Assembly: GCA_024305105.1 (NCBI GenBank)
Contig: JAMWZA010000004.1
Location: 7,876-71,875 of the forward strand
DNA length: 64,000 nt
Direction of reading: 5' to 3'
Source of the DNA: Marinoscillum sp.
GTDB lineage: Bacteria > Bacteroidota > Bacteroidia > Cytophagales > Cyclobacteriaceae
The position numbers and the translations under genes are program-made. Positions within the stretch are counted from its first letter, which is position 1. Every line of letters starts with the position of its first letter. Shown here piece by piece: positions 12,282 through 64,000 of this stretch. Below the pieces are notes generated by a model. That model searched no databases. It was not told the DNA's origin and worked only from the letters and a program-made list of their open reading frames with translations.

Positions 12282-13691
12282 CTACTTTACAAATCGTGAT
12301 ACCGTGTCACCAAATTGGACAAGATATATACCCGGTGCGAGCGAACTAACGTCTGTCATGCGGCCACTATTCTTCAAAAGAAGCTTCCCTTGCATATCAA
12401 ATATCTGTATGGACGTATCATCATCTATACCTTTTATTCGAAGATAGTTGTTTACTGGATTAGGCACTATCTGAATTGATACATCATTAGTTCCATTTCT
12501 AATAGTTGTTTTTCTTGATGACGAATTGTTGTCTAGCTCAGATCCAGATAGAAGCACAGGATCAATCCATTTGTTTTCTGGAATAGCATCTGTTGAGCTA
12601 TGAGCACTATAGTAAGAACCCAGATCAGTGAGTGATCCGTTCTCCTTTAAATTACATCTCGCCTTTACGCTATCTACTTGAAAACACTCAAACCAGGCAT
12701 ACCTCTCTATGAAATTTTGAGATTCCAACCAAGGCAGGGCTTTTTCCATAAATCCCTTTTGTACATAAGTCCACCTCCAGGGATTGGCATTAAATTCTGT
12801 TACCCAGATTGGCAATCCATATTTGGCATGAATGGCCAAAAGGTCATTTTTAAATCGGTTAAAAATGTGATCAGGATCAGCCCCTCTTGTATTTTTCGGA
12901 TTACTATCCCAATCATACCAATGTACTGCGATATAATCCACTTTCACATCAAGATGATAAGCTTCAGATAGGAAAGGTTCAAGCCAAACACTATTTAGGT
13001 CATTATTTTGAGTAGTTACAGGCGATCCCAGTCTTAGCCCCGTAGGCAATAGTTTTTCGTATTCATCTGCAGCTGTCACGGGATTTTTCAATATGCCCCT
13101 ACTTCCGGCCTCATGGTCATTATCTGGCTCATTGAAACCAAGAAGATGACTCACTTTGTTTTTTAAATTATCAATTTTTGAGAAAACACCACTGCCCGTC
13201 CAGGTATGAACCATAGGTACAAACTCTATGGACGTAGAAGTATCACCAGTGGCTGTCCAGTTGTAATACCAGCTCGCATTCATATCCTGGGCATAGGACA
13301 CTCCACCACTAGTTTCTGTTTTTCCCACTCCCTTTTTTTGAGAAGTACTGATTGGTAGCACTCGGATAAATGATGCTTTATTATGAAGTATATCAGGTAA
13401 GTTTTCGTTGACATGCCCCACCTGGGATATATAGGTTTTACTGTATCCAGTTCCATCCTCATTTTCAGAGAAAACGACCTGATATCCAGAGAATATTTTG
13501 ATAGAGGAGATGCGGTTGTTTAAGTTGTTAGGGATTGCACTTCCGGTGTAAGTACCAACATCAAGCAGTGCATTATCAGAGTTCCACTGATTTTTGTAAT
13601 CATACACTCTCACGCCACTCTGTGCGTGCAAATGAGCCGCAACCAGTGATAAAACTAAAAGGAGTAAAGCATTTTTCATTATCATCATCAT
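12282..13691 (-). CDS. Beta/gamma-crystallin domain + GH128-like glycoside hydrolase + T9SS CTD
   Basis: Crystallin motif NNRISSIKI. GH128 motifs WYYNW, LLGFNEPD, DYIAVHWY, PIWVTEF, ERYAWF. C-terminal IVPNPVNN...YLVQ. Likely start MKNALL at 13679. Confidence 0.85.
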   Translation of the reverse strand: MMMIMKNALLLLVLSLVAAHLHAQSGVRVYDYKNQWNSDNALLDVGTYTGSAIPNNLNNRISSIKIFSGYQVVFSENEDGTGYSKTYISQVGHVNENLPDILHNKASFIRVLPISTSQKKGVGKTETSGGVSYAQDMNASWYYNWTATGDTSTSIEFVPMVHTWTGSGVFSKIDNLKNKVSHLLGFNEPDNDHEAGSRGILKNPVTAADEYEKLLPTGLRLGSPVTTQNNDLNSVWLEPFLSEAYHLDVKVDYIAVHWYDWDSNPKNTRGADPDHIFNRFKNDLLAIHAKYGLPIWVTEFNANPWRWTYVQKGFMEKALPWLESQNFIERYAWFECFQVDSVKARCNLKENGSLTDLGSYYSAHSSTDAIPENKWIDPVLLSGSELDNNSSSRKTTIRNGTNDVSIQIVPNPVNNYLRIKGIDDDTSIQIFDMQGKLLLKNSGRMTDVSSLAPGIYLVQFGDTVSRFVK

Positions 13692-13781
13692 TAAAATGAA
13701 TAGTCAAGCTCCTAAAACCAAAAGAAAGAACTGGGGTCATATCGGTCAATGATGGGTAGAAAATCATCATATCAATAAGTA

Positions 13782-14084
13782 GGGGCTGCTGAAAAAATCT
13801 CAGGAAGATCAAATACAAGGGGCGCCCCCGACAAAGTGACAATGCGGCCGGCCGGGTGCATAGTTATACTTTGAGCTGAAGCCAACAAAGTAGGTGGTCT
13901 TCCTAGCCGGATCGCATCTGAGGCTAACTCAAAATAATCAATCTATGATTATTTTGCTACACGGAAAAACGGCCTAATCTGCATAAAACACTTGCACCTT
14001 GCTGAAAAAGTATTGAATCAAAAACTCTGTTTTGAGGATCTGATCAATCAATTCAACTTAAAATAGTGGTTTGTCAGCAGCCTC
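13782..14084. mobile_element. Non-autonomous IS derivative (MITE), 303 bp
   Basis: Terminal inverted repeats ggggctgctgaaaaa (13782-13796) and tttgtcagcagcctc (14070-14084), 13/15 match. A flush direct repeat taagta lies at 13776-13781 and 14085-14090. No intact transposase. Confidence 0.75.
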
Positions 14085-14144
14085 TAAGTAAATATCCCTT
14101 TAGCGCTCAAAAAGTGAAAGTTGTTTGGACGTAAGCTTAACACC

Positions 14145-15638
14145 TCAGTGCTCTACCAATGACTCGACAAGTCCCAGGTATTTTTCCCAATATCGGAGCA
14201 ATTCTTCGTCTGATGCAGTGGTGTCCATACCCATCATTTCCATTCTGGAGATATAATTAGAAAGCATGACCCGATAGGCTTCCTCTATTCGGAGAGAGTC
14301 TTCGGGGTAGTTAGCCAAATCATAGTCCTTTAAATCTTGATCCAGTGTTTGCCTCATCTTTTCCAAACTAACTTCATTTTCATCATCGTCAGCAAGATTG
14401 TTGAGTTCATAAGGGTCATTTAAGAGATCGTATAATTCTTCTGCTGGCTTTTGTGCTGCCATGAACAATGCTTGTTCGTCAGAGAGTAGGCCTTGTTGAT
14501 TCATAACTCTCATGAGTGTCAATACTGGATAACTCGTCCTCTTGTAAGCATTAAACTGTGTATATGGAAGGTGAGGATAGTAATTTCGAATGTACTTGAA
14601 GCTGTCAGTACGTACAGCGCGCATCCGATCTGTAGTACCGTCCATTCGATCTCGCATGGTGAACACATGATCTCGCGAATTAGATAGAAAATTAATTCCC
14701 TGTATGTGATTAGGTACGTCTAATCCAGCCATAGTAAGACTTGTTGGTGCGATATCTACATTGCTCACCAGTTGGTTGGTAATCTGACCACTTCGCCGAC
14801 CATCCGGCCACCGAATCATAAGAGGTGTATTAGTACCTGGATCATATAAAAACTGCTTCGCCCGAAGATGTGGCCTACCCTGATCTCCAAAGAAGAAGAT
14901 AATTGAGTTTTCCAGTAATCCATCTTTTTCTAGTCGATCCATAATTTGACCAAATGCATGGTCGACCTCTTGAATGGTCTCCAGGTAAAGTGCCCAATCT
15001 TTTCTTGTAATCTTATGATCTGGATAATAAGGGGGAATTTCTACCCGTTTTGGATCAACAGGGTTTAAGGAATCCTTATGAAAGGGCCTATGCGGAGCAA
15101 ATAGTTGAATCTGAGCAAATACAGGCTGTCCCTCGACTGCATTTCGGTAATCAAAGTGATCAAACAGACTATCAAAATGCGTATCAAAATTGTAGTCCAT
15201 TTTACCATTACCTGTAAATTTGGCATTGGCATTACTTACATAATATCCTGCATCTTTGAAGTAAGAGGTAACCGATTGAATACCAGATGATAATGCCTCC
15301 TTTTGAAAAGTCCTGTGTTGATGGCTAGCAATACTGGTCGGATACATTCCTGTGATTAGGGAAGATCGACTAGGACTGCAAACTGGAGTTACTGTAAAAA
15401 AATTGGTGTATCGTTCAGCATTCCTGGCAAATGTATCCAGGTTGGGCGTTTGTACGGCTTTATTACCATAACATCCCAGATCTGTCCCAAGGTCATCAGA
15501 TACGATCCAGATGATATTTGGCGGGGAAACTTGATTGTTGACCTCCGTACAGGAAACAATAACCATTAGCACAACTATCGAGAAATATCTTATCATTGGA
15601 CAGGATCTAAATTCATTTTTTTTTAAAGACAACAGCAT
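14145..15638 (-). CDS. S1 sulfatase (sulfamidase-like), probable lipoprotein
   Basis: IIWIVSDDLG, CSPSRSSLITG, GKMDYNF, FFGDQG; lipobox IVSC. Likely start MIRYF at 15596. Confidence 0.92.
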   Translation of the reverse strand: MLLSLKKNEFRSCPMIRYFSIVVLMVIVSCTEVNNQVSPPNIIWIVSDDLGTDLGCYGNKAVQTPNLDTFARNAERYTNFFTVTPVCSPSRSSLITGMYPTSIASHQHRTFQKEALSSGIQSVTSYFKDAGYYVSNANAKFTGNGKMDYNFDTHFDSLFDHFDYRNAVEGQPVFAQIQLFAPHRPFHKDSLNPVDPKRVEIPPYYPDHKITRKDWALYLETIQEVDHAFGQIMDRLEKDGLLENSIIFFFGDQGRPHLRAKQFLYDPGTNTPLMIRWPDGRRSGQITNQLVSNVDIAPTSLTMAGLDVPNHIQGINFLSNSRDHVFTMRDRMDGTTDRMRAVRTDSFKYIRNYYPHLPYTQFNAYKRTSYPVLTLMRVMNQQGLLSDEQALFMAAQKPAEELYDLLNDPYELNNLADDDENEVSLEKMRQTLDQDLKDYDLANYPEDSLRIEEAYRVMLSNYISRMEMMGMDTTASDEELLRYWEKYLGLVESLVEH

Positions 15639-15684
15639 CCGCTTTAAAACCGGAACCGGCAGGCCTACCTGAATGGATTCATCA

Positions 15685-17090
15685 TTATTTCCAGGGATTA
15701 GGCCGTCTGGTTAGTGGAAACTCATCACTTTCTGTCCGGGCAGCCGAAACTATTTTTATTAAATCTACAAGAACCCCAGGGTTGTTTTTTGAAACCTCCT
15801 CTGTTTCTCCGGGGTCTTTCCGAAGATTATAGAGCTCATAATTGTTATTTTCCACCCAATGAATCAACTTCCAGTTACCCTTAACCACTGCCTGGATGGG
15901 GCCTTCACCTTCGTTGAACTCCCAATATAAATAATCATGTCTCTTTTGCTTGCCTAAACCTGAGAGTGTTGGATAAAAGGAAATTCCATCAGTAGCTGCT
16001 TCCATTGGAGCATCAGTGATATCGGCTAGTGTTGGCATTATATCCCAGAACGCTGTAATGTGCTCTGTAGAGCTTCCATGAGCTACCATTGCCGGCCAAT
16101 GAACGATAAAAGGAACACGAATCCCTCCTTCGTACAGGTCTCTCTTTCTACCTCTGAAGGGACCATTACTATTAAAGAACTCATTGGTTAGTTCATCATA
16201 CTCATGGCCATTGTCACTCGTGAAAATGATCACAGTGTTTTCTAATTCACCGCGCTGTTTCAGCAACTCAATGATCCTTCCAATATCATCATCCATCTTA
16301 GAGATCATCGATGCATAAGTGACATGGCCATTTGTGTCATGGTAGTAATGGCCTCTTTTCATTCTTCTCATGGGCCAACCCAGGCTATCATATTTTACCT
16401 TGTGTTCCGCTGGAAGGGTTAACTCAAAATGAGGAGTGGTATATGCCAGGTATAAGAAGTAAGGTGATTGCTGACTTGCCTCTATAAAGTTTAATGCCTT
16501 ATTGGTGAATAAACTTTGAACATGGTCTCCTGTTTTGTTTTTCGTATCATTTTGAGTCAATCTCAAAAGGGAATCATTTTCCCATATTTGTTCAGGATAG
16601 TAATGATGTGCTGGTAGATGCTTATTGAAACCATAGAAGTAATCAAATCCCTGGTGATTCGGCGTAGTTTTACCCATGTTTTCAGCCAAACCCCACTTAC
16701 CAATCATTCCTGTCTTGTAACCTGCGGATTTCATTAGTTTCCCCATGGTTTGTCTTTCAGAATCAAAATCCACTGGATGTCCACTCAAGGACCAACGCGG
16801 ATTACCCCGCACTGCTCCATGCCCGGTGTGTAGACCAGTGATCATACTAGCACGTGATGGGCCACATACCGTACTTCCCGCATACATGTGACTAAATACC
16901 ATTCCCCTGGCTGCCAATGAATCAATATTAGGAGTGATTATGCGTAGCTGACCATGGAACCCTACATCTCCCCAACCCAAATCATCTGCTACTATTAATA
17001 TAACGTTGGGTTGATCCTTGGATTTCACTGTCTGCTGACAGCTGCTCCAAACAGTACAAGCAGTCAGTATTAAGATATGATCAATGTATC

Positions 17091-17094
<4 letters not shown>
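15685..17094 (-). CDS. S1 arylsulfatase, probable lipoprotein
   Basis: ADDLGWGD, CGPSRASMITG, GKWGL, FTSDNG, YLYWEF; lipobox WSSC. Confidence 0.93.
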
Positions 17095-21682
<4,588 letters not shown>

Positions 21683-52317: not shown

Positions 52318-53321
52318 TGGAATAACTCTGACATCACATCGCCCTGACCAGTGGGCATGTCAAAGCCTAATAAATAGGCAATTGTCGCCGGGATATCTAT
52401 TTGTTCCCTTTTCATTTTTTCTATGTGCCCTTGTTTAAAATCTGGCCCAAATGCGAAAAGGTTGATATGTCGGCATCCATCACAACTGCACCCATGGGAG
52501 AAAAAACCATTTTTGACATCATCGAGATGTCTACCATGATCATTGGTAATAAAAAGTGACGTTTTACCAGCGTATATGCTGTCTTGTTGGATGAATTGGT
52601 ACAATTCGTAGACATACTGGTCAGTATCTCTGATCCCCTGAAGGTAGCCCTCCCAGTTCTTTTTATGACCGGACCTATCCGGTTCACGGAAATTCACGAG
52701 CATTAATTTAGGGTGGTGAGTAGCCATTACGTCCAGTACTCTTTCCATGGTAGCACTGTCATGGCGATAACCACTACCTACACCAAGACCGCCTACCCCA
52801 GAGTTCACAGAGGGGTTGTAAGTACCCTGCCATGCACTATCCTGGCAATCCGATAATATCTCGAGTTTGTCTTTGCTGGTTACCACCCATGCCTTGAATT
52901 CACTCTCCCGTGAATTTTTAAGCCAGTACTGAAAAAAAGACGGATTTTGTGCCAACTCTTTTCCGCTGTTATCAATTTCCTGATAATTACCCGTAGTGAT
53001 GGCTGAATGCCCGGCATTTGTGTAGGTTGGGCCATTGTTATAAAACTCAGTGTAATAGACTCCATGAGGTGCAAGGTCATTGGCCAATCGTGGTAAATAA
53101 GTATGATTAGGGTCTCCCCACGTTTCAGAGTAACGCGGGCCATCTATAACCACTACTATTACATTTTCCGTTTTGTGTACTTTGTTCTTTGTTTGTTGGT
53201 TTATACAACCAGAACCGAAGATCAAAAGGAATAATACGAAAGCAACTCGAGTACAAGGGAGGGATATATTATCTGTTTTCATAATTAAGATTGTTAGAAT
53301 GAAGAATGGGATCAAATCCAT
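52314..53321 (-). CDS. Alkaline phosphatase-superfamily metalloenzyme, probable lipoprotein
   Basis: VVVIDGPR, TYTNAGHSAITTG, EPD..GH, ITNDHGRH; lipobox GSGC. No CxPxR. Likely start MKTDN at 53282. Confidence 0.75.
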   Translation of the reverse strand: MDLIPFFILTILIMKTDNISLPCTRVAFVLFLLIFGSGCINQQTKNKVHKTENVIVVVIDGPRYSETWGDPNHTYLPRLANDLAPHGVYYTEFYNNGPTYTNAGHSAITTGNYQEIDNSGKELAQNPSFFQYWLKNSRESEFKAWVVTSKDKLEILSDCQDSAWQGTYNPSVNSGVGGLGVGSGYRHDSATMERVLDVMATHHPKLMLVNFREPDRSGHKKNWEGYLQGIRDTDQYVYELYQFIQQDSIYAGKTSLFITNDHGRHLDDVKNGFFSHGCSCDGCRHINLFAFGPDFKQGHIEKMKREQIDIPATIAYLLGFDMPTGQGDVMSELFQ

Positions 53322-54714
53322 ATAACCAGGAATGAAATTCTTCCTTCAGCTCGTTAACCAATTTCTGTTTTTTTGAACTTAGGTCCGTAGTTTCACCTAA
53401 GTCTTTACTTAAATCAAATAATTCTATTGACGGGGGGTCATAATGCCCTATTAGTTTAAAATTGCCCTTGCGGATAGCATACCCTGGCATCTTTGCCTGA
53501 GGACTGTAATGAGGATAATACCAGTGAAGTGTTTTTCGATTTAAGGACCCAATGTTTTTTAAAACAGGAATAAGTGAGACCCCATCTACCTGGCCTGCAC
53601 TCGCACCTACCATTTCAGCTATTGTAGGCAGTATATCATCAGTGATGACTAGCTCATCAGTTGATGTAGATTCCTCCACTTCTCCAGGCCATTTCACAAT
53701 CATGGGTATTCTTATCCCCCCCTCATAAAGATAGCCTTTGCCTTCTCTAAGAGGTTTGTTATTGGTTACTTTCCCTTCGCCTCCATTATCACTACTGAGA
53801 ATAACAATGGTATTGTTCGATAACCCCATAGTAGAAATGCTTTCTAAAACACGGCCCACATTCCAATCCATGTTTTCCACCATGGCGCCATAAATGGCGT
53901 TCTTTTGTTCATCTTGACCCTCTATTCTATGCTTATACTTTGCTACCAAAGTATCGGGTGCTTCTAATGGAAGATGTACGGCATAATGGGAAAGGTATAA
54001 GAAAAAGGGACGTTCCTTATTATCACTTATGAATCGGATTGCTTCATTTGTGAGTCTATCAGTTAGGTATTCTCCTGAATCTCTCGGGGAGAGGTTTTTG
54101 ATCACAGGATTCCATGTTTTTTCAGATTGGTAGGGACCCCAATATGTGGGCGGGCTGCCATGCTCATAACCTGCAATATTGGTATCAAAACCCTGATGAG
54201 TTGGGAAATACTTCTCATTATCACCCACATGCCATTTACCTATGCTTGCGGAAGCATACCCTAACCCTTGCAGCATTTCTGGAATCATTGTCTCTTCCAA
54301 AGACACATGCATATAATCATCCGGAGGAACAATTCTTCCTTTTTCAGGATACCTGTGCCGTCCGATTGCGGTAATATGTCCGGTAAACCCCAGATTTACC
54401 GGATTCTTTCCTGTGAGAATACTTGCTCTGGAAGGCGAGCAGACAGGACTTGCGGAATACGCATTGGTAAAAAGCATCCCTTCTCTGCTTAACTGATCAA
54501 TATTGGGGGTATCATAGAATGTGCTTCCATAGCAGCCTAAATCCTTCCATCCCAAGTCATCAATCAATATAAATACCACATTCGGATGACTTTGTCCTTG
54601 AACTTCCAGCAAAGAAGTTGTCAACAATAAGACTATTAAAAAGGACGGTATATGATTTACCTGTTTAACCATTTGCTTAACGTTTGTACAAGTATAAAAT
54701 GGGCTCTCGCTCAC
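53269..54714 (-). CDS. S1 sulfatase (S1_16-like)
   Basis: IDDLGWKD, CSPSRASILTG, GKWHVG, YAVHLP, SSDNGG, WYYPHY. The start is probably downstream of 54714. Confidence 0.92.
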   Translation of the reverse strand: MSESPFYTCTNVKQMVKQVNHIPSFLIVLLLTTSLLEVQGQSHPNVVFILIDDLGWKDLGCYGSTFYDTPNIDQLSREGMLFTNAYSASPVCSPSRASILTGKNPVNLGFTGHITAIGRHRYPEKGRIVPPDDYMHVSLEETMIPEMLQGLGYASASIGKWHVGDNEKYFPTHQGFDTNIAGYEHGSPPTYWGPYQSEKTWNPVIKNLSPRDSGEYLTDRLTNEAIRFISDNKERPFFLYLSHYAVHLPLEAPDTLVAKYKHRIEGQDEQKNAIYGAMVENMDWNVGRVLESISTMGLSNNTIVILSSDNGGEGKVTNNKPLREGKGYLYEGGIRIPMIVKWPGEVEESTSTDELVITDDILPTIAEMVGASAGQVDGVSLIPVLKNIGSLNRKTLHWYYPHYSPQAKMPGYAIRKGNFKLIGHYDPPSIELFDLSKDLGETTDLSSKKQKLVNELKEEFHSWLYGFDPILHSNNLNYENR

Positions 54715-57412
54715 TAATCGTCACATACCCCGAGCCATCACGGAGCCAGGTAATTGCCTCCCCCTGGGGCTCCTCAACATAAGGTAAAGAGGTAACAGAA
54801 CGTGCTAGAGCATCTATAACTGATTCACCTTCACCACGTTTCCAATAGAACACATTGTCCTTGTTTTTTATAAGTATTTCGGATCCATCAGGTGAGATAT
54901 CGCCTCCATTCGTCAATCGAAATGGTAGGGTAACGTTGGACTTGATAAGATTTAGTGTGTCTTCCGTAGGTTGAGGGAATGGCATGGAATAAATCTGCAC
55001 ATGAGTCTCCCGTTTTGTGACAAGATACAATTCTCTGGTCTCAGGGTCTATCATTAGAATTTCGGCATCCCTGGGTCCATCTGCGTAGGTAAATGTGAAT
55101 GAAGAAACCTCACTTTTGGCCAAACTGAGATTTTGATTTAAACTGGTGATATCAACAGCTGGCTCAGCAACCCGGTAAATGTACTTGTACTTGTTATCCG
55201 CGCCATTATCTCCAATGTCGGCAACGTACAGGTAGGACAGTTCCTGATCAGGCCCAGGCCCTAATGTGATGTCCTCCCAGTCTCTGCTTGTAATGTTGTC
55301 AATGGTTATTCTAGCTACAGTTTGTCCATTTTCATTCACCAGGTACACATTGGCATCATCTCCACTATCATTATGTACCCAAAAGTGGTTTGGATATCTA
55401 ACACTTGCAGCAATACCAGATATTTCGTCCAAACGACCATCTGAAAATTCAGTCAAAACTATTCCCATTTCTTCAAAAAACTCAGGTGGATCCATGATGA
55501 GGGTAATGTTCTTTTCAAAGTTATTTCCGACATCTCTCAGGGTGAGCAGTGCCGTGTCACGTTGCATGCTAGAGGGTACCAGAGCGATCTTTTTATTAGG
55601 AAGCACCTCGATATTAAACGCCTTTTCGCTACTCAATTCCCAAGTATATTGAGGTGCATTGGCTCCCTGATAAGTAGATGGATTCAAAGTAAGGTTATCC
55701 TTTGAATAGAAATCTTGAAAGGTGGGATCATCAGTAAAATAGAAATAAGGCCGGCGTACAAAACAGTGTATCGTATCTACTCCATAAATAGCCGTATCCA
55801 CGGCATTTAGGAATACACCCGGTTGTGTGTCAGTGAAACCATTTGCATCATAAGATTCTGTAAATGTCCCATTAACTTCACTATTGGTGTTTCCGTTTAT
55901 GGCTAATGAAACATTTTGTTCACCCTCCCTGTGTAACGATTGATACCTAAGGTTATAAATGCTATAAGAGCGTTTGACAATGTCTGCTTGAATCCTATTG
56001 ATGGCACTTTCCAGCTCGCTATCGTCGCTGATAGGGATGAACCTCTCAGGGCTGACCAGTTTAGGTTTGGTGAAACTATCAGCTATACTATCCATACTAA
56101 TTAAGTACACCCATTTATCACCACGTTCATTAATAACTTCCTCCAGCCACTCACTACTGGCCTGCTCACTGCTGCCAGCTGAAAACACTATTACAGCGCC
56201 CTGTGATACGCTCAAAGGAGCATGTTCGTCCTGCCAACTATTAAGAGCGAGAGGCAGTGACACGGCTAAATTAGATTTCCCTTCATTTTGTGGTTCAATT
56301 CTGCTGATATAATACTCGAGATTAAGTTTATTGTCCATGAAGTGATTAACTAATTCTGCAGAATCCGCATAAGCATAAATAGCTATTTGCTGATTGACTG
56401 CCATTATGTCTACCAAGTGATTGGCTGCCCTTTGGAAAGACTGGAGATGGTCCGTAGTATTTTGACCTCTATCAATAAGTAAAACAGTATTGATAAAAGT
56501 GGATGATTGGTTTGTCTTCTTGATGCTTAGAAAAGTAGCTTCCGGAGAGGCAGGTTCGCCATTTTCGTAAACAACAAAGTCCTCACCATCTAAAAAGTCT
56601 ACTCCTCCTTTGTGCCTGTCTGTAACTGTAAACCAAGCATTGACCAAGCCTGGTATATGTGATTGAAAATCGACATTGCTAAAGGCAAAGTGTCGGTCTT
56701 CAAACTCAAAAGAATAATTTTTACTCCTGTAAAGGATATCATACTCCGTGTCTATATGTAAGCCAGAATAAGCGTTAAAATGGAGTATGTCTCCAATAGT
56801 CATTTCCAATTCGTTACTAGTTGCTCGATGGATTGTTTTTGCCTGAAGACCTGTTGTGGTATCGTCGACCTCAACAGCTTGTAACCCAAAATAAGTAATG
56901 TCTGCCACCTCTCCACTTCCTTGGGTACACTGCATCCGATAAGTCTTAACAGACAGTCCGTTTGTTACTTTCAACAGATAAATACCTACCAATCCAACCT
57001 CTATTTGAAACGTATTCTTCCCCTTAGATGCATACTGTGTTCTCCTGATTAGTTGTCTGCCGGAAAGGTCAAAAACAGCTAGACTAATTGGTCCGGAGAC
57101 CTCACTAACCCACTCAAAGCTTGTGGATTTACTAAATGGGTTCGGATATAAGTAGGACTCTAAATATACCCTTGATGACAAAACTTGCTCAGACAACGTG
57201 TCTGGTGAATCTGTCTCAAAAATGATATCATAATAATCCGACTCAATAACCTTTGAATACCCATTTGTTAAATTTGTGATCTTCACGCTATCGAGTGCCT
57301 CAGAAGACCCGAATGTAAGCCGAATATTCTCCTGTGCGGATAGTGAAAACGAACAGATTATAAACCCGATGACAGTGAAGGGGTTTATCTTAGATAACAT
57401 CAGCTGTATCAT
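54677..57412 (-). CDS. Secreted protein with an internal T9SS-CTD-like domain, a degenerate vWA domain and a C-terminal beta-propeller
   Basis: aa 87-161 YLYPNPF...VFDLSGR...GIYLLKV; aa 307-490 vWA-like (TVLLIDRGQN, AVIVFSAG); from aa ~650 EISGIAAS..WVHNDSGD..DWEDI..LYVADIGDN..EPQGEAI. Confidence 0.7.
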   Translation of the reverse strand: MIQLMLSKINPFTVIGFIICSFSLSAQENIRLTFGSSEALDSVKITNLTNGYSKVIESDYYDIIFETDSPDTLSEQVLSSRVYLESYLYPNPFSKSTSFEWVSEVSGPISLAVFDLSGRQLIRRTQYASKGKNTFQIEVGLVGIYLLKVTNGLSVKTYRMQCTQGSGEVADITYFGLQAVEVDDTTTGLQAKTIHRATSNELEMTIGDILHFNAYSGLHIDTEYDILYRSKNYSFEFEDRHFAFSNVDFQSHIPGLVNAWFTVTDRHKGGVDFLDGEDFVVYENGEPASPEATFLSIKKTNQSSTFINTVLLIDRGQNTTDHLQSFQRAANHLVDIMAVNQQIAIYAYADSAELVNHFMDNKLNLEYYISRIEPQNEGKSNLAVSLPLALNSWQDEHAPLSVSQGAVIVFSAGSSEQASSEWLEEVINERGDKWVYLISMDSIADSFTKPKLVSPERFIPISDDSELESAINRIQADIVKRSYSIYNLRYQSLHREGEQNVSLAINGNTNSEVNGTFTESYDANGFTDTQPGVFLNAVDTAIYGVDTIHCFVRRPYFYFTDDPTFQDFYSKDNLTLNPSTYQGANAPQYTWELSSEKAFNIEVLPNKKIALVPSSMQRDTALLTLRDVGNNFEKNITLIMDPPEFFEEMGIVLTEFSDGRLDEISGIAASVRYPNHFWVHNDSGDDANVYLVNENGQTVARITIDNITSRDWEDITLGPGPDQELSYLYVADIGDNGADNKYKYIYRVAEPAVDITSLNQNLSLAKSEVSSFTFTYADGPRDAEILMIDPETRELYLVTKRETHVQIYSMPFPQPTEDTLNLIKSNVTLPFRLTNGGDISPDGSEILIKNKDNVFYWKRGEGESVIDALARSVTSLPYVEEPQGEAITWLRDGSGYVTISEREPILYLYKR

Positions 57413-57461
57413 ATCATAAAAAACTCTTAGCTATTACTATCAATTTATCCTTTGAAGCAAT

Positions 57462-58706
57462 TCAGTTGGTTTTCGGGTCCCATATTGTTGCATGGATTTG
57501 TCCTTGTCGCTCCTTGGTAGAATAATAAAATATAGCCACCATTTTACCATCTGATCTGGTAATGACACGCGGATAGCCCAAATCATTTAATTCCATATCC
57601 TCAGACCAGAAAGCATCGTACAAAATCTGAGGCTCGCTCCAGGTACGTCCTTCGTCTGAACTATATGCAATTTGTATCGTTCCTTCGTCGCGCTCACCAT
57701 AGACAGCACACAGCCTGCCATCTTGCATTAGTGCCAAAGCAGGCGGATTCCCATTACCACTTCCAGCATCGCCCACTTGTGATTGAAATGTCCATGTCTT
57801 CCCTCCATCAGTTGAAGCATAGGCGTCTACCCAATTTCTACTTTTTACTCCTTTTCCAGAATACTTTCTGCGCATAACTGTAAGCATCTTCCCATCAGAA
57901 AGCAAAAACGATTCAGACATTACTGCACGACATTGTGTAGACCATGGGTTTAAGGATTCATCATCATAGAGTGGCACCTTAACTGCACTCGCTACTTCAT
58001 CAGCATGGAAGGGCTTCACCACCCAACCGTGAAACTGAAAGGTTTTCCCTCCATCTGTAGTTTTGATACAGAACAACCGATCCTTGGCAAATTTGCCTTT
58101 AGGCCTGGCAGACATAAAAATAATGCACTCCTTTTTACCCAGAATGATGTAATCAGTCCGTGGAGTAATCTCAACTTCATCCCAATATTTTTTGAGCTCT
58201 GGATGATTCTGAAAATCTCCAAAGGTGTGAGGTCCTCTCCATTTCTTACCACGATTCGTCGTATAAAAAAAATGTCCTCTTGGGTCTTCCGCTCCGTGAT
58301 ATGCAGTACCTACTACCCGCATTGCAAAACCATTTTGCGTGAAATCAACCTCCTTTTTGAGATCAGTCAGTTCTGGTTGATCTCCAAAATCACCTACATA
58401 GTTTTTTGGGTTCCATGCTTTCCAGGTGAGGCCTCCATCATTACTACGTGACAACCAACTTGTTTGATCTTCACCCAGATTATGCCCCTCTTGAAGTACA
58501 TACTCCGCCTCTGTAAAGCCAACCAAAATATTATCTCCATCAAAAATCCATGCACCATTATTGGCCGGCCAACCTGCAAAACGGCCTTGCTGATGGTATG
58601 CAACTGCCTGTTCAGCTCCTTGTACCTCCTTTAATTGCTGCGCGTCCACACTCCCAATTGCAATCAGTGTACAAACTATTAGTAATCTGTTCTTGATATG
58701 TTCCAC
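57462..58706 (-). CDS. BNR/Asp-box beta-propeller protein (sialidase-fold, activity unknown)
   Basis: Five Asp boxes: SNDGGLTW, TTNRGKKW, TTDGGKTF, STDGGKTW, SSDEGRTW; DLGYP near the C-terminus; no F/YRIP. Confidence 0.8.
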   Translation of the reverse strand: MEHIKNRLLIVCTLIAIGSVDAQQLKEVQGAEQAVAYHQQGRFAGWPANNGAWIFDGDNILVGFTEAEYVLQEGHNLGEDQTSWLSRSNDGGLTWKAWNPKNYVGDFGDQPELTDLKKEVDFTQNGFAMRVVGTAYHGAEDPRGHFFYTTNRGKKWRGPHTFGDFQNHPELKKYWDEVEITPRTDYIILGKKECIIFMSARPKGKFAKDRLFCIKTTDGGKTFQFHGWVVKPFHADEVASAVKVPLYDDESLNPWSTQCRAVMSESFLLSDGKMLTVMRRKYSGKGVKSRNWVDAYASTDGGKTWTFQSQVGDAGSGNGNPPALALMQDGRLCAVYGERDEGTIQIAYSSDEGRTWSEPQILYDAFWSEDMELNDLGYPRVITRSDGKMVAIFYYSTKERQGQIHATIWDPKTN

Positions 58707-58902: not shown

Positions 58903-59784
58903 TTAAACACGCTCGTTACTTTGGTTTTCAAGATTTTTTAGGTTCTTCCTGTATTTACCTGGAGACACCCCGCAGATTTCCTTAAACTGATTATTAAAGT
59001 GTGCCAGATTGTTATAACCTGACTGATAGCAAACACTTGTAATGGAATACTCAGAGTCCTGAAGCAGCTTACAGGCATAACCAATCCTAACACCTTTTAG
59101 ATAATTGAATAGCGTGGTTCCAGTGGCACTTTCAAAAAACCTGCAAAAAGCACTTGGTGACATATGGCAGATTTCAGCTACATCTTTCAAATACACTTTT
59201 TCAGTGAAATTGACCATTATAAACTGAAAGACTTTATTCAGTTTATCACTTTGAGTTCTCTTGGTATCTTCAAAAAAGCCAGGTCTGGCAAGAACCTTCC
59301 ATTCTCTGGCCCCAATCAGTATTTCAAAAATTTCGAACAGATAAATCAGGCGTCTGAGATTGGTAGCATCTGTCATTTTATACATAATGTGACCTACCTT
59401 AGTGGCAAACTCCCCTGAAAACTGAATGCCAGAATAAGAGTCATTCAATAGCCCAATTACCGGCTTAAGTTCGGGAGACTTCATGATGTTTTGGCCAATG
59501 AAATCTTCTTGAAAATGAATAGTGATGCATTCGGGGTTCAGTCCCTTCCTAACGCTCTTTACCTCCCAACAATGTGGTAGATCTGGGCCAAGCAACACCA
59601 AGTCACCACGGGAGAAACTTTCAATATTATCACCAACAATCCGTGTTCCTGATCCATTAACAATGTAGTTGAGCTCAAAATTTTTGTGAGAATGAATTTT
59701 GTATGTCTCTGGGGACAGCATCGTCTTTTTCAAACCAAAAGATGAAGTTTCGGGGACGACTATGTGGGCTTTTACATGCTTCAT
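58903..59784 (-). CDS. AraC family transcriptional regulator (cupin + HTH)
   Basis: IHSHKNFELNYI..GSGTRIVGD; HMSPSAFCRFF; SGYNNLAHFNNQFK..GVSPGKYR. Confidence 0.95.
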   Translation of the reverse strand: MKHVKAHIVVPETSSFGLKKTMLSPETYKIHSHKNFELNYIVNGSGTRIVGDNIESFSRGDLVLLGPDLPHCWEVKSVRKGLNPECITIHFQEDFIGQNIMKSPELKPVIGLLNDSYSGIQFSGEFATKVGHIMYKMTDATNLRRLIYLFEIFEILIGAREWKVLARPGFFEDTKRTQSDKLNKVFQFIMVNFTEKVYLKDVAEICHMSPSAFCRFFESATGTTLFNYLKGVRIGYACKLLQDSEYSITSVCYQSGYNNLAHFNNQFKEICGVSPGKYRKNLKNLENQSNERV

Positions 59785-59857: not shown

Positions 59858-61354
59858 CTATACTATTTCCCTGTCTTTGGGGTCCCAGTAAACCTTACGA
59901 TTTTCTCGAAGTGACTGAGTAGCCATATGACAGGTAATTCCCTCCTGGAATGCTTCCATAATATTACAACTTGTAAGACCACCATTTCGAATATGATACA
60001 ACCAATCAAAAAGGTGTAAATGCGTGGCATCCATTACACGACCGTTGAGGTCCATGAGTGTAAGGCCGCGATTCTGATAATAGGAGCTGGTAGCTCCCGA
60101 AACAGCATCGATTTCATTTTCTGATGACACTAATTTGTTCTTATGACCAGTCTGTACTTCATCTGCATATTTTTTTGAGTTACGATCAAAAGTCAACAAC
60201 AACGATTGCCCCAATTTCATGGAAGCTTCATTTCCCAAAAACATCGTATTTCTTTCGTCTCCACTTGCGAGATTTCCAGCGTAGGTAATCATTTTCTTCT
60301 GTTTTGGGTAATTGAAAACTGCATTGATGATATCTGGTGTTTCACGATCATCCTGGTAGTGATAAATTCCTCCTGATGCCGTTACCTCAGCGGGTATTCC
60401 GAGTCTTGTAATTTGATTGACTATATCAAACTCGTGTGAAAACAACTGGCCAACCATCCCCGTACTATACTCCCAGTAATGGGTCCAATTATAGAAACGC
60501 CGAATATCAAAAGGCACAGGGCTGGCCTTACCCAAAAATGCCTTCCAGTTTATAGTCTTTAAATCCCCCGGCTTATTTAAATGTCTTATCCATGCCCCAT
60601 GGTCTGTATTTCGATTGGAATAGGTCTCTATGCTTGTTACCTGACCAAGTGCTCCCTCCTGATACATCTTATATGCCAGCTGCACAGAAGTATGTTGCCT
60701 ATTTTGATGACCTAATTGGAAAACTATTTCGCTACTAGATACTTTGTCGAAAACAGCTACAGCTTCTTCTGCCGTTCGGGTTAGACACTTTTCACAGTAC
60801 ACATGCTTACCTGACTCTACGGCATCCAAAACCATCTGAGCATGCCAATGGTCAGGAGTAGCTATAATGACAGCATCCACTTGATCGCTAGACAGCAGAT
60901 CCTGATAATGTTCATATTTCTTTGGTGCATTTTTCAGACGGCCACTTCCATGTAATGGATCTAATACCATCTCTTCAGCACGATCTCTATGCAATTCAAA
61001 CACATCACAGATGGCTGTGACTGTTACATTAAGATCATATTGATTCTTATAAGCCTGATATTTTAAGGTCTCCTGTTCTTGGCTGCGCCAATTACTACCA
61101 GCAAACCCACATGCTCTTAGTAGTGATGAGCCCCTGGCGCCAACCCCTATGATTCCAAGGCGGATGGATTGTTTCATTCCTTCCAACGCTGGCTCTTCTT
61201 GTCCATTTTTAGAAGCTAATACTTCAAGAATGTCATTTTCCAAAACTGATCGATCTCGGATTTCCAATCCGCCAACACCTAAGCTACGAAGGATCGGAAC
61301 TCCTGCAAGTCCTCTTAAAAAATTTCGTCGATTCCAGTTTTTGATGTTACGCAT
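59858..61354 (-). CDS. Tat-exported Gfo/Idh/MocA family NAD(P) oxidoreductase
   Basis: Twin-arginine NRRNFL; GIIGVGARG; DAVIIATPDHWHA; HVYCEK; FQLGHQ.R. Confidence 0.88.
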   Translation of the reverse strand: MRNIKNWNRRNFLRGLAGVPILRSLGVGGLEIRDRSVLENDILEVLASKNGQEEPALEGMKQSIRLGIIGVGARGSSLLRACGFAGSNWRSQEQETLKYQAYKNQYDLNVTVTAICDVFELHRDRAEEMVLDPLHGSGRLKNAPKKYEHYQDLLSSDQVDAVIIATPDHWHAQMVLDAVESGKHVYCEKCLTRTAEEAVAVFDKVSSSEIVFQLGHQNRQHTSVQLAYKMYQEGALGQVTSIETYSNRNTDHGAWIRHLNKPGDLKTINWKAFLGKASPVPFDIRRFYNWTHYWEYSTGMVGQLFSHEFDIVNQITRLGIPAEVTASGGIYHYQDDRETPDIINAVFNYPKQKKMITYAGNLASGDERNTMFLGNEASMKLGQSLLLTFDRNSKKYADEVQTGHKNKLVSSENEIDAVSGATSSYYQNRGLTLMDLNGRVMDATHLHLFDWLYHIRNGGLTSCNIMEAFQEGITCHMATQSLRENRKVYWDPKDREIV

Positions 61355-61383
61355 AATGTGATTTTTTAAATCACTATGAGTGT

Positions 61384-63444
61384 CTAAGAAGAAGAAAACT
61401 CAATAGTGACTATCTCAAAAAAGGCTTTGTTCATCCAAATAACCAATTGGTCGGACCCCTGTTCGTACCCTACCCGGTACTCTGATCTTTTCAAAAGGTC
61501 ACCGTTTACCTTCAAGTCAAACACATGATTCCCCGACCTCCAGTTGGTAATAACAAAAGCCGGATGGATAAGCGGGCTTTTTGCACTCGCCGTAATACGG
61601 ACCTCTATTTTATTTTTTGGTAAAGCACACTGAATCACATATGCACGTTGATGCTTTTGATAGTAGACTGAATCCACGTTATCAGAATATGAACTGACCT
61701 TGGGGGCATGATTCCAGGACCGTGAGAGGTTTACAAGCCATTCTATAGAGTGCTGGGTCATACCCGTGAGAGAAACGGCACTAAAAGTACCATCTTCATG
61801 AGCATGTATTACTGGAGAATTCTCCATACCCTGTGACAGAGAGGAGTGTGATGGTCGGTCAGCATCCAATGCCTGTCGTCCATCATTGGGCAATTGGGCA
61901 ACAGGCCAATGATTCCACCAGGGAAACCTAGAAATGGAAGGACGAATCCCGCCAGTAAATGGCTTGATTTTTACTTCATTTTCAAAAATTATAAAGGGCT
62001 TAAATCTGGACTTGATATTCACCAACTGAACGTTCACATCGGCAGGATTTTCAAATGTTTTGGGTACCCCATTACTCCAGGAGTAGGTCATGTGCTCTCC
62101 GGCTTCATTGGCAAGAGTGAGCGCATCTGATTCGATGTTGTCTTCAGGCCTTTGGCCTGGTTGGTGTATGACGATGGTCTCTTGCCACTCGTGACTTAGG
62201 TAATCTGACCATAGCTTTTGGAATCTGGTGGATACACCATCGGGATATATATAATAATATTCTTCTGCCCACTCGCCCCAGTCGGTAGTAGATTCAGCTC
62301 CATAAACATTGTATAAAATATCGGACAATGCGTACCTCCAATGCAACACGATTCTTGCATCCGTTTTCTCAATGATTTTTACCTGAGAATAGCGTGTTTG
62401 TTTGTCTGACATATGTTCTGAACAGCCAAGTGGTGACTTCCCTTTGCCTGCCCGCTCCAAACTCTGATCAGCCATCCATATTCCTGATTCGCTCACCCAG
62501 ACACCTCCATAGCCTGTTCCACGCCAAAAGACATACTTAACAGGTAATTGATCAAATGACACCACTATATCCGGGTGGTCACCGACTCGCCAGGTATGCT
62601 CCCACTCTTGCGCGTATTCTAACCTCGTATAATATGCACGAAATACAGAATCATTGGAGGGTATCGGAAGTGCATAATAGTTGAGCGGTTGCCTATTTGT
62701 GGGTAATTGGGTCTCATAACTGGACGATATCTGCTGCTGAGTAAGCGCTTCTGCATATAGGGATATCTCATCCAATAGCCCGTGAATGATCATTTTGGAT
62801 CCGATCTCAAAACTCGCGGAGCGCTCGGAGCCTATCGGACCCAGGTCCTGAAGATTACGTCCTATCCATAATGTTTCATTTTCAAATTTAGGGAGTTCCC
62901 CAGTGACATCCACATGCTCTACCATGTTGGCATTGACATAAAGATGTATGCCCTTATCTGAGTGATAAGTGGCTGTAATTTGCTGCCATGAATGAAGGGG
63001 CAGCTTTTCTTGAGATACCAGGTGAATGAGCGTATCTTTTAATTGCAGTTTAAAACCAATGTAACCATAGGCATTGACTCCTAAGAAAAAGTCATGGACA
63101 AAATCGCTCTTAACAGGAGTTTGAGCTGAAGGTGTTCCCTGGTTGATTATTGCAGTCCAATTCCATGGATAGGTTTGCAATGCTACCCATGAGCTTACGG
63201 TAAATCCATTACTTAACTTCTCACTATCAATTGGCTCGGAAATAATGGTAGAAGTATACCCATCTAAAAACGCTGCCTTACCCTCTACTCCCTGCCTCCA
63301 AGTTAAATAACCCGCTTTACGGAAACTTTCACCCTTGTTGCCTTCAAAGCTCCACTGAATGTGGTTACCCCATGACTGATTCACTTGTGCTGAGAGCGAA
63401 AGTGAGATAATCATTATGATACCATTTAGCAAGTAAAGCTTCAT
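61384..63444 (-). CDS. LamG/ConA-like domain protein with a large uncharacterised C-terminal domain
   Basis: LamG signatures FTVSSWV, WQQITATY, HLYVN, LWIG, GLLDEISLYAEALT..QI; signal peptide. The C-terminal ~430 aa is unassigned. Confidence 0.75.
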   Translation of the reverse strand: MKLYLLNGIIMIISLSLSAQVNQSWGNHIQWSFEGNKGESFRKAGYLTWRQGVEGKAAFLDGYTSTIISEPIDSEKLSNGFTVSSWVALQTYPWNWTAIINQGTPSAQTPVKSDFVHDFFLGVNAYGYIGFKLQLKDTLIHLVSQEKLPLHSWQQITATYHSDKGIHLYVNANMVEHVDVTGELPKFENETLWIGRNLQDLGPIGSERSASFEIGSKMIIHGLLDEISLYAEALTQQQISSSYETQLPTNRQPLNYYALPIPSNDSVFRAYYTRLEYAQEWEHTWRVGDHPDIVVSFDQLPVKYVFWRGTGYGGVWVSESGIWMADQSLERAGKGKSPLGCSEHMSDKQTRYSQVKIIEKTDARIVLHWRYALSDILYNVYGAESTTDWGEWAEEYYYIYPDGVSTRFQKLWSDYLSHEWQETIVIHQPGQRPEDNIESDALTLANEAGEHMTYSWSNGVPKTFENPADVNVQLVNIKSRFKPFIIFENEVKIKPFTGGIRPSISRFPWWNHWPVAQLPNDGRQALDADRPSHSSLSQGMENSPVIHAHEDGTFSAVSLTGMTQHSIEWLVNLSRSWNHAPKVSSYSDNVDSVYYQKHQRAYVIQCALPKNKIEVRITASAKSPLIHPAFVITNWRSGNHVFDLKVNGDLLKRSEYRVGYEQGSDQLVIWMNKAFFEIVTIEFSSS

Positions 63445-63536
63445 AACACTTAATTAAAGGCACTCATCTATTCAATAGGCTACCGAATTCACAGCCTGCC
63501 AGTTCTCTTTTCTAACTCTTCATTGGATGCCAAAGG

Positions 63537-64000
63537 TTACTCCAAAATCCATGAAAGGTTGAATGTATACACCATCTTACCATCGGTCAGGTAAATCAAT
63601 CCATCAGGACTTTGAATAATAGACATATAGCCTATTTCCTGACCTTGATTTTTAGTTAGTGTATTGATTTTTTGCCAGGGTGCTACTCCAATCTGTTTAG
63701 AATTAGCTCCATTAATATTACTTATTACTCTTCTATGTTCCTCCGGCCAAGTTTTTCCCTCATCCCAAGAAAGCGCAACAAAAAGTCCTTTTACCTTATC
63801 TGGATCTGCCTCTGAATTCTTTGCTTCAAACTCCTCATTGGCAAAACCTACAAAAAGCAATGGCTTTGAATCAGTTGCTGCATATTGCAACCGCAATAAG
63901 CCAAACCTTTGCTCACCTTTAATTGAAGGAAAAATGGAAGCCTTCCTACTCCAGGTGCTACCCCCATCTATAGATAAACTAATGGGAGCCATACCATCAT
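63537..64000 (-). CDS. BNR/Asp-box protein, C-terminal fragment (runs off the right edge)
   Basis: Frame is open to the window edge; Asp boxes SIDGGSTW and SWDEGKTW; ends GYMSIIQSPDGLIYL...FNLSWILE. Confidence 0.75.
   Translation of the reverse strand, partial: DGMAPISLSIDGGSTWSRKASIFPSIKGEQRFGLLRLQYAATDSKPLLFVGFANEEFEAKNSEADPDKVKGLFVALSWDEGKTWPEEHRRVISNINGANSKQIGVAPWQKINTLTKNQGQEIGYMSIIQSPDGLIYLTDGKMVYTFNLSWILE

Follow-up and report, generated by a model that had tools for sequence, protein, structure and literature searches.

A large sulfatase-rich polysaccharide-utilization locus with GH136-like beta-helix proteins in Marinoscillum sp., possibly directed at a sulfated galactan

The DNA studied here is a stretch of 64,000 nucleotides from contig JAMWZA010000004.1 of Marinoscillum sp., called the window in the following. 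From position 12282 to its end at 64000, the window is occupied by a large polysaccharide-utilization locus (PUL) of an alga-associated Bacteroidota bacterium. There are 33 large open reading frames (ORFs) in the window, and the 29 genes from 12282 onwards, counted with ORFs of at least 150 residues, all lie on the minus strand. Table 1 summarizes them as they were assigned by Pfam and NCBIfam profile scans of the window ORFs. The gene pair by which a PUL is recognised, a SusC-like TonB-dependent transporter adjacent to a SusD-like lipoprotein, is present, and two GH128 enzymes, a GH2 enzyme, two GH136-like proteins, an esterase, nine sulfatases and a hybrid two-component system regulator (HTCS) are co-oriented with it. 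A terminator-like hairpin just downstream of the last PUL gene is the likely 3' end of the locus. At the other side the last ORF is still open at 64000, and therefore the locus extends past the window end. Two parts can be distinguished: a conserved core at about 12.3-47.7 kb, and a colinear and tightly packed right-hand extension from 48 to beyond 64 kb.

A first-pass annotation of the same DNA had listed an HTCS, a SusC/SusD pair, nine sulfatases, two GH128 enzymes, a GH2 enzyme, an acetylesterase, an oxidoreductase, a ribulokinase and a LamG protein, and the profile scans bear out all of these. They also agree with its remark that the usual endo-enzymes are absent, as no window ORF matched GH16, GH29, GH95, GH78, GH105 or GH43/GH117 in Pfam. 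For the three BNR proteins in that list, one is clear (57462-58706) while the other two (26862-28025 and 63537-64000) fall below the BNR threshold. Four genes had been missed, namely the alkaline-phosphatase-superfamily gene at 52314-53321, the AraC-family regulator at 58903-59784, and the genes of the 911-residue VWA protein and of the 560-residue protein with a type IX secretion system (T9SS) sorting domain. A concatenated query of ten unassigned proteins against the PDB returned only matches of the GFO family and of Ig domains, and none for the 911-residue, BNR, LamG, 387-residue or alkaline-phosphatase-like proteins.

Table 1. Features of the locus in window coordinates, in order of position
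Position	Strand	Feature	Details
11917-11954	-	Terminator-like hairpin, 17-bp stem then T run	Just downstream of last PUL gene
12282-13691	-	GH128b	PF11790 catalytic core at residues 134-361; T9SS C-terminal sorting domain
14145-15638	-	S1 sulfatase, S1_8-like	CSPSR motif; nearest solved: Gal-2-sulfate sulfatases S1_8A/B/C
15685-17094	-	S1 sulfatase	CGPSR motif; nearest solved: 7ANA, 7AN1
17091-18476	-	S1 sulfatase, S1_19-like (a)	Nearest solved: carrageenan Gal-4-sulfatases 6PRM, 6B0J, 9HH3
18473-21649	-	GH2, LacZ-type beta-galactosidase	Five GH2 domains including Bgal_small_N; NF052611
22094-23452	-	S1 sulfatase, S1_19-like (b), core partner of BH559	Nearest solved: S1_19 carrageenan Gal-4-sulfatases
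23728-24441	-	SASA-family (sialate-O-acetylesterase-like) carbohydrate esterase	Lipoprotein-type signal
24830-26650	-	S1 sulfatase, 606 aa	T9SS sorting domain
26862-28025	-	Secreted protein, 387 aa	BNR/sialidase-like signals below threshold only
28032-29354	-	S1 sulfatase, 440 aa	CAPAR motif
29438-30814	-	GH128a	Lipoprotein signal; GH128 core 44-280; Gly/Asp-rich linker; C-terminal CBM35-like module
30844-32391	-	SusD-like glycan-binding lipoprotein	SusD_RagB 178 bits
32396-35491	-	SusC-like TonB-dependent transporter	Plug and CarboxypepD_reg domains
35738-37420	-	560-aa T9SS-sorted protein	Two CBM35-like modules, two Big_2 domains
37617-41606	-	HTCS	Reg_prop/Y_Y_Y, HisKA, HATPase, receiver, AraC-type HTH
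41632-43188	-	S1_15 sulfatase (exo Gal/GalNAc-6-sulfatase type)	686 bits to S1_15A (9BAS)
43306-44985	-	BH559, GH136-like right-handed beta-helix glycosidase, 559 aa	GPGDSAGxHIDF motif (D320, D327)
45087-47723	-	BH878, second GH136-like beta-helix enzyme, 878 aa	D561/D568; N-terminal CBM35-like module; T9SS domain
48009-49676	-	AraB L-ribulokinase	NF003154
49708-51117	-	S1 sulfatase, 469 aa	CSPYR motif; nearest solved: 7STT
51145-52317	-	Clan GH-A (beta/alpha)8 glycosidase	NEP (E209) and TEY (E308)
52314-53321	-	Alkaline-phosphatase-superfamily protein, 335 aa	Without sulfatase Cys motif
53269-54714	-	S1 sulfatase, S1_16-like	Nearest solved: 9FO1, named 'k-carrageenan sulfatase S1_16'
54677-57412	-	911-aa ORF	Signal peptide; Por_Secre_tail-like segment 88-154; VWA_2 309-411; C-terminal half of no recognised family
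57462-58706	-	BNR/Asp-box beta-propeller protein, 414 aa (sialidase-like fold family)	Pfam
58903-59784	-	AraC-family regulator, cupin-like N-terminal domain	Pfam
59858-61354	-	GFO/IDH/MocA oxidoreductase, twin-arginine signal	Nearest 8TDH/8TDF
61384-63444	-	686-aa protein, N-terminal LamG/ConA-like domain 76-240	Remaining ~440 residues without family match
63537-64000	-	BNR_2-like protein, C-terminal part	Sub-threshold BNR match; ORF open at window end

The two beta-helix proteins, BH559 and BH878, are 30% identical to each other. They had been called unclassified, but they can be placed as distant GH136 relatives both by sequence and by fold. With phmmer, their sole sequence matches in the PDB were GH136 lacto-N-biosidases (BH878 to 6KQS with E 1e-18, BH559 to 7V6M with E 2e-12). 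An AlphaFold model of BH559 built on 39 homologues has a pLDDT of 88, and ranks 1-6 of its Foldseek list are all GH136 (7V6I, 7V6M, 5GQC, 6KQS/T; E 2e-20 to 7e-15, TM-score at most 0.68), with unrelated beta-helix lyases coming next only at about 1e-7. Both proteins contain the motif GPxDSxGxHIDF with an aspartate pair, D320/D327 in BH559 and D561/D568 in BH878, and D320 and D327 are invariant in the 39 BH559 homologues. The Asp-x6-Asp spacing of seven equals that of D568/D575 in ErLnb136, where the comparison is by motif spacing and not by residue-level structure alignment; the phmmer range 271-608 (versus 246-617) covers the pair. In ErLnb136, D568 is the acid/base and D575 the nucleophile (PMC7335108).

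The relationship is remote, however. Identity to the GH136 structures is only 18-20%, and the NCBIfam LnbX equivalog scores 46 bits on BH559 against a cut-off of 2500, with a match limited to the N-terminal 76 residues. Canonical GH136 enzymes need the GH136-I/LnbY domain for activity (PMC7335108), whereas the matches to 6KQS begin at its residue 246, past the GH136-I domain, and no GH136-I/LnbY-like gene was found by Pfam scans among the window ORFs near BH559 and BH878. From sequence and model, both proteins are judged to be distant GH136 relatives and not canonical GH136 enzymes. BH878 has a T9SS sorting domain and is therefore probably secreted.

BH559 belongs to a family that is found far beyond this genome, with 209 clusters at 50% identity (E at most 1e-30) and about 300 places in species-representative genomes that encode a relative. 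Its neighbourhood was counted in the 80 best BH559-family loci, within 10 kb on either side, for neighbours homologous to window proteins. The S1_19-like orthologue of 22094-23452 occurs in 54 of the 80 loci, mostly at 53-65% identity and often directly beside the BH559 homologue. It is followed by SusC (36), the S1_15 sulfatase (35), HTCS (26), GH2 (17), GH128b-like (14) and GH128a-like (11) genes. Neighbours other than window homologues were most often GH43 (17), SASA esterases (11), GH16 (11), GH29 (6) and GH116 (4). For example, the gene order in Marinifilum is SusCD-GH128-GH43-sulfatase-BH559-sulfatase-GH2-three sulfatases, and Flavilitoribacter has a minimal unit of HTCS-SusCD-S1_15-BH559. 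Judged by homology, a core of S1_19-like sulfatase, GH136-like protein and S1_15 sulfatase is present in hundreds of marine, sediment, freshwater and soil Bacteroidota, with BH559 as its signature gene. Together with HTCS and SusCD, and often with GH128 and GH2, this core recurs among the 80 loci. Marine hosts are Marinifilum, Leeuwenhoekiella, Cellulophaga, Polaribacter, Flammeovirga and Algoriphagus, while Pedobacter, Parapedobacter, Emticicia, Runella, Lacibacter and Flavihumibacter are hosts from freshwater and soil. The nearest genes to the window proteins in species-representative genomes have 50-70% identity.

The nine Sulfatase-domain proteins score 134-218 bits against PF00884, and all nine have the formylglycine motif C-x-P/A-x-R-x4-TG at residues 70-92; this maturation motif is missing from the 335-residue protein at 52314-53321. 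Pairwise identity among the nine is only 23-41%, and therefore they are nine different enzymes and not recent duplicates. The structures 7ANA and 7AN1, nearest to 15685-17094, are ones we take to be Bacteroides S1_20 Gal-3-sulfatases. The clearest assignment by sequence is 41632-43188, which matches the S1_15 structures 9BAS, 9BAU and 6S20 with 686, 630 and 541 bits over residues 30-513 and is a clear member of that subfamily. S1_15A (9BAS) is a Gal-6-sulfate sulfatase of the lambda-carrageenan cascade (PMC12549532), and S1_8A/B/C, the nearest solved relatives of 14145-15638, are Gal-2-sulfatases of the same cascade. Every assignable sulfatase has its nearest solved counterpart among enzymes for sulfated galactose or N-acetylgalactosamine (GalNAc), at the 2-O, 3-O, 4-O or 6-O position. 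The 606-residue sulfatase, with its T9SS domain, is a candidate for a secreted sulfatase acting on the polymer.

Both GH128 proteins are well above the PF11790 cut-off of 21 bits (GH128b 151, GH128a 178). The best PDB match of both is 6UAQ (E 3e-36 and 6e-25), the other top named matches being Glyco_hydro_cc/GH128, and their top solved relatives are all GH128 beta-1,3-glucanases. GFNEPD and W(I/V)TEF are found in both proteins, with the catalytic assignment of the two glutamates made by clan GH-A convention. GH128b, in which an N-terminal domain of no recognised family precedes the core, is probably a secreted, endo-acting enzyme. The sulfatase-rich setting argues for a different or sulfated substrate of the two enzymes rather than plain beta-1,3-glucan. 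The GH2 enzyme (18473-21649) scores 1022.5 bits to NF052611, where the cut-off is 999, and AraB (48009-49676) scores 659 bits to the equivalog-level NF003154, where it is 428.

The remaining enzymes of the right-hand part are less sharply defined. The protein at 51145-52317 matches Pfam Cellulase with 24.8 bits (cut-off 23.5) and GH10 with 28.6 bits, both marginal, and a PDB sequence search gave no match. Its model resembles generic GH5/GH1-type barrels, best GH5_18 and GH5 mannanases at a TM-score of about 0.55. It is a clan GH-A barrel with both catalytic glutamates and is GH5-like at the fold level only. The first-pass annotation had called it GH5_13-like, but the fold led neither to GH5_13 nor to another subfamily. 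Its family is very large, with about 60% identity kept across phyla including soil taxa, and NEP (E209) and TEY (E308) are invariant in it. A homologue of this 390-residue protein elsewhere adjoins a GH51-like alpha-L-arabinofuranosidase in a sulfatase-free context, where a GFO/IDH/MocA oxidoreductase of some 500 residues is encoded at a distance of about 4.5 kb. The GH51-like neighbour may be taken as a weak hint of an arabinose-related role. The oxidoreductase of the window (59858-61354) is nearest to the glycoside 3-dehydrogenase-type structures 8TDH/8TDF and scores 113 bits to NF058561, far below the cut-off. GH109 was also considered for this protein with its twin-arginine translocation signal, and was dropped as the best matches were glycoside-3-dehydrogenase-type enzymes.

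Signals and binding modules indicate where these proteins may act. T9SS sorting domains are present in four proteins (GH128b, the 606-residue sulfatase, the 560-residue protein and BH878), and lipoprotein-type signals are present on GH128a and several sulfatases. Three proteins share a divergent CBM35-like module, of which there are four copies: one is C-terminal in GH128a, two are in the 560-residue protein, and one is N-terminal in BH878. The copies are sub-threshold in Pfam (E 7e-4 to 5e-3), and their identity to the corresponding module at the C-terminus of a Balneolaceae GH128 is 36-59%. The shared module ties GH128a, the 560-residue protein and BH878 to one extracellular polymer, and the 560-residue protein is probably a glycan-binding protein at the surface or secreted.

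Most likely, we infer, the target is a galactan or arabinogalactan-type glycan that has beta-1,3 linkages and is sulfated heavily and heterogeneously, a reading to which we give slightly less than an even chance. Three groups of observations lead to it together: the Gal-directed sulfatases for four ring positions with the LacZ-type beta-galactosidase; the known beta-1,3 chemistry of GH128 (beta-1,3-glucan) and GH136 (Gal-beta1,3-GlcNAc); and the GH43, GH16 and esterase genes beside the core elsewhere. GH43, GH16 and SASA esterases are the set with which Bacteroides PULs for beta-1,3-galactan or arabinogalactan protein (AGP) are equipped. The presence of the same DNA in algae metagenomes also speaks for this reading.

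The first-pass annotation had proposed an undescribed sulfated, acetylated glycan containing galactose and arabinose, for example from green algae. Its sulfated, galactose-containing target agrees with the nearest solved sulfatases, which are Gal/GalNAc 2-, 3-, 4- and 6-O-sulfatases, and beta-1,3 chemistry is plausible from GH128 and from a GH136-like enzyme with relatives releasing Gal-beta1,3-HexNAc. A SASA esterase is present, and no characterised PUL with this gene set was found. The arabinose part is half borne out: AraB is present, but neither araA nor araD was found in the window, and the arabinose inference comes down to one araB gene. What does not stand is the word undescribed for the glycan, since Codium-type sulfated galactans and AGPs have been described, and it is the degradation route that is undescribed. 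A substrate specific to green seaweed is also too narrow, because the core is found in freshwater and soil Bacteroidota as well.

A possible order of events can be proposed from the enzyme classes and from the locations predicted for the proteins, with the substrate and the step order being what we infer. The T9SS and surface proteins (GH128b, BH878, the 606-residue sulfatase, the 560-residue protein and GH128a) would act outside the cell, where they would bind the polymer and nick it. Sulfated oligosaccharides would then be taken in by SusC/SusD and sensed by the HTCS. In the periplasm, exo-sulfatases of at least six kinds would desulfate the non-reducing-end galactose, at 6-O (S1_15), 4-O (two S1_19-like and one S1_16-like), 3-O (S1_20-like) and 2-O (S1_8-like), while acetyl groups would be removed by the SASA esterase. 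BH559, putatively a retaining enzyme with the Asp-x6-Asp pair, would cleave the desulfated end, and by analogy with lacto-N-biosidases a beta-1,3-linked disaccharide would probably be released. Finally, the LacZ-type GH2 would yield galactose, and AraB would feed freed L-arabinose into the pentose pathway.

Several points weigh against this reading. To our knowledge, only beta-1,3-glucanases have been characterised in GH128 and only lacto-N-biosidases in GH136, and a galactan specificity, if true, would be new for both families. BH559 lacks a GH136-I/LnbY domain, its beta-helix starting at about residue 38. Neither GH43 nor GH16 was found by Pfam in the window, and NCBIfam assigned no subfamily to the GH43 and GH16 neighbours of the BH559 loci. 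The sulfatase specificities are taken from the nearest solved structures only, in concatenated queries, by which six of the nine are classifiable and three (24830-26650, 28032-29354 and 49708-51117) are without subfamily. The core is also carried by the freshwater and soil genera, from Pedobacter to Flavihumibacter, in whose habitats algal sulfated galactans are unexpected. The genes at 48-64 kb (BNR, LamG, GFO, GH-A, VWA) are absent beside the core in the 80 loci and may serve another substrate. A search of sequencing runs for RNA-seq data holding the locus sequence found none.

Two other kinds of glycan have to be weighed against the sulfated galactan or AGP. One is a red-algal galactan of the carrageenan family, of lambda type or a non-gelling and highly sulfated hybrid, whose backbone would be cut by non-canonical enzymes replacing GH16, GH82 and GH150. 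Carrageenan sulfatases are among the closest solved relatives of five of the six classifiable sulfatases (S1_19, S1_16, S1_8, S1_15), carrageenan pathways have in common a GH2 beta-galactosidase as their last step, and the locus DNA occurs in algae metagenomes. We nevertheless consider it improbable, as Pfam scans gave no candidate for GH16 (PF00722), GH82, GH150, GH110, GH127/129 or GH167 and no dau genes for 3,6-anhydro-galactose, the beta-helix proteins are nearest to GH136 with no GH82 or GH110 structure in the top 50 Foldseek matches, GH128/GH136 beta-1,3 chemistry misfits an alternating alpha-1,3/beta-1,4 backbone, and the core is present in Bacteroidota of fresh water and soil. The other kind is an animal-type sulfated glycan, for which the wide distribution of the core outside the sea speaks, as animal glycans are available there. 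The core target would then be mucin- or keratan-type Gal-beta1,3-HexNAc chains or chondroitin sulfate, from which the GH136-like enzyme, once the 4-O and 6-O sulfate is removed, would free a beta-1,3 disaccharide (lacto-N-biose, galacto-N-biose or chondrobiose-like). GH136 enzymes do release Gal-beta1,3-GlcNAc, and S1_15, S1_16 and S1_20 are Gal/GalNAc sulfatase subfamilies also used on mucin O-glycans and chondroitin (for example BT3333). The SASA esterase and the BNR proteins of the locus and the GH29 fucosidase beside the core in six loci also agree with such a target. However, no GH20, GH29, GH95, GH33-grade sialidase, GH84/89, PL8 or GH88 was found by Pfam scans in the window, and the two GH128 enzymes, the LacZ-type GH2, AraB and the GH43 and GH16 neighbours elsewhere would be left unexplained; this target is likewise held to be improbable. 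Fucoidan, ulvan, agar/porphyran and alpha-mannan were rejected as substrates as their signature families are absent, and a plain laminarin PUL was rejected in view of nine sulfatases and no GH16, GH17, GH30 or GH3.

Whatever the substrate, the locus may be two units instead of one, with an HTCS-controlled PUL (12.3-47.7 kb) abutting an AraC-controlled cluster (48 to beyond 64 kb) that holds AraB, two sulfatases, the GH-A, alkaline-phosphatase-like, VWA, BNR, GFO and LamG proteins and serves another glycan or side chains. With the AraC regulator at 58903-59784 the locus has two regulators, a hint that a right-hand sub-cluster is under control of its own. Among the 80 related loci, no non-sulfatase gene of the right-hand part accompanies BH559, araB is near sulfatase genes in only one of 80 relatives, and the GH-A family occurs elsewhere in unrelated, sulfatase-free contexts, once beside the GH51-like arabinofuranosidase. 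On the other hand, all genes share one strand and are tightly packed (gaps of 28-286 bp, and overlaps), there is no strong terminator between 44.5 and 64 kb, the right-hand order is colinear in a related organism on a 6.8-kb contig from araB to the S1_16-like sulfatase, and the right-hand part brings two more S1 sulfatases. The division into two units is thus possible but on balance rather unlikely. Far less can be said for the suggestion in the first-pass annotation that the locus lies on a recently integrated genomic island, which we regard as very improbable. SusC, SusD, GH128a and S1_15 are 60-71% identical to genes of Saprospiraceae, Cellulophaga, Leeuwenhoekiella and Balneolaceae, while araB reaches only 54% identity to any genome. 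That the PUL core genes are closer to distant lineages than araB is to anything suggests, as far as sequence identity goes, ancient horizontal spread. Such spread is common for PULs and does not speak for an integrated island. The window, which ends short of the right border of the locus, has no tRNA, and no integrase, transposase or phage gene is among its ORFs. GC is 0.38-0.44 throughout without a break at 12.3 kb, and in related strains (about 85-92% identity) the left flank and the locus are both present and colinear.

The PUL paradigm itself is well known, but a PUL with this gene set is uncharacterised in the literature found, and a literature search on GH128, GH136 and GH43_24 with sulfatases and on Codium sulfated galactan PULs gave no characterised match. 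When compared to known systems, the nearest in the sulfated galactan or AGP reading are the Bacteroides AGP PULs. Bacteroides plebeius uses sulfated Codium AGP and, unexpectedly, wine AGP (PUL13/PUL5), with GH43_24, S1_8 and S1_14, and desulfation is required before backbone cleavage (PMC8406133). Import of a beta-1,3-galactan-type glycan through SusC/SusD, desulfation before backbone cleavage, and an S1_8-type sulfatase with GH2 would be shared with the present locus, the first as inferred and the second as proposed here. GH43 and GH16, which are exo- and endo-beta-1,3-galactanases in Bacteroides, join the core in related genomes. The window differs in having no GH43_24, GH16, GH27, GH145 or GH105, with GH128 and GH136-like enzymes instead, and in having nine sulfatases and T9SS-secreted components where the B. 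plebeius PUL has two sulfatases.

The carrageenan PULs of Zobellia galactanivorans and Pseudoalteromonas (kappa/iota and lambda CarPULs, PMC12549532) share S1_19, S1_16, S1_8 and S1_15 relatives with the window, and also, as proposed here, the cyclic preparation of non-reducing-end galactose by exo-sulfatases for exo-glycosidases, with GH2 as the last step. Unlike them, the window has no GH16/GH82/GH150 carrageenase, GH110, GH127, GH129, GH167 or anhydrogalactose genes and relies on other backbone families. Similarly, BH559 and BH878 share the right-handed beta-helix with the GH136 lacto-N-biosidases (LnbX/LnbY of Bifidobacterium longum; ErLnb136 of Eubacterium ramulus, PMC7335108) and have a putatively corresponding Asp pair seven apart, but are without the GH136-I/LnbY chaperone-like domain or neighbouring gene. 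They stand in sulfatase-rich PULs of environmental Bacteroidota, whereas the lacto-N-biosidases stand in human-milk-oligosaccharide and mucin loci of gut Firmicutes and Actinobacteria.

Two PULs noted in surveys of marine Flavobacteriia show the same unusual combination of GH136 or GH128 with sulfatases. An 'enigmatic' PUL with GH136 and sulfatases was reported in Winogradskyella forsetii (PMC9723794), and in Polaribacter clade 3-b a PUL combines GH128 with four sulfatases, its SusC/D proteins having been detected during a spring bloom (PMC7242417); no substrate was assigned to either. Likened by description and not by sequence, they probably represent this PUL type or parts of it, although the locus in the window is larger, with both glycoside hydrolase families and nine sulfatases. 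The carbon pool formed by sulfated algal glycans is large and turns over slowly, and most of the PULs directed at these glycans are without a known substrate. The present locus is a complete and well-delimited example of the type called 'enigmatic' in surveys. Once its substrate is assigned, hundreds of loci would be annotated together, GH128 and GH136 would probably gain new specificities, and position-specific sulfatases for galactose, as well as glycosidases, would become available to tailor sulfated galactans. In principle the locus is no surprise, but as a lead it is concrete, widely distributed and open to experiment.

A more general proposal may be put forward, though we think it is more doubtful than the substrate reading itself and on the whole unlikely. 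The BH559 family would be a GH136-related, LnbY-independent glycosidase family that, with its S1_19-like and S1_15 partners, marks a pathway, spread over the Bacteroidota and so far unrecognised, that degrades sulfated beta-1,3-galactan or arabinogalactan. In this pathway BH559 would be of the exo-beta-1,3-galactobiohydrolase type and a GH128 subgroup would be endo-beta-1,3-galactanases, each a new activity for its family. If it is true, the occurrence of the pathway in soil and freshwater bacteria would mean that sulfated galactans and AGPs are far more widespread outside the sea than assumed.

Some further observations concern single genes and the flank. The alkaline-phosphatase-superfamily gene at 52314-53321, lying between a glycosidase and a sulfatase gene, shares 4 nt with the former and 53 nt with the latter, an arrangement that suggests translational coupling. 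In the 911-residue ORF, the Por_Secre_tail-like segment is at 88-154, whereas it is normally C-terminal; either a small T9SS protein and a VWA protein may have been fused in frame, or the start of the ORF may be wrongly extended. Just outside the PUL, 1661-9229 on the minus strand encodes a T9SS-sorted protein of 2522 residues, in which an N-terminal purple-acid-phosphatase/metallophosphoesterase module precedes numerous repeats of Ig-like and InlB-B type.

The identical DNA is present in one sequencing run, the window sequence was found at 97-100% identity in one algae metagenome and one marine metagenome, two further algae metagenomes share part of its sequence words, and relatives at 85-92% identity occur in two other sequencing runs. 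Promoter and terminator scans were at chance level except for two strong hairpins, 10702-10738 and 11917-11954. The former has a 16-bp stem and lies between the convergent genes 9766-10698 and 10769-11782. Adjoining the latter, the PUL terminator, a short piece of unusually high depth (11948-12017) was seen in one sequencing run and may be a repeated element.

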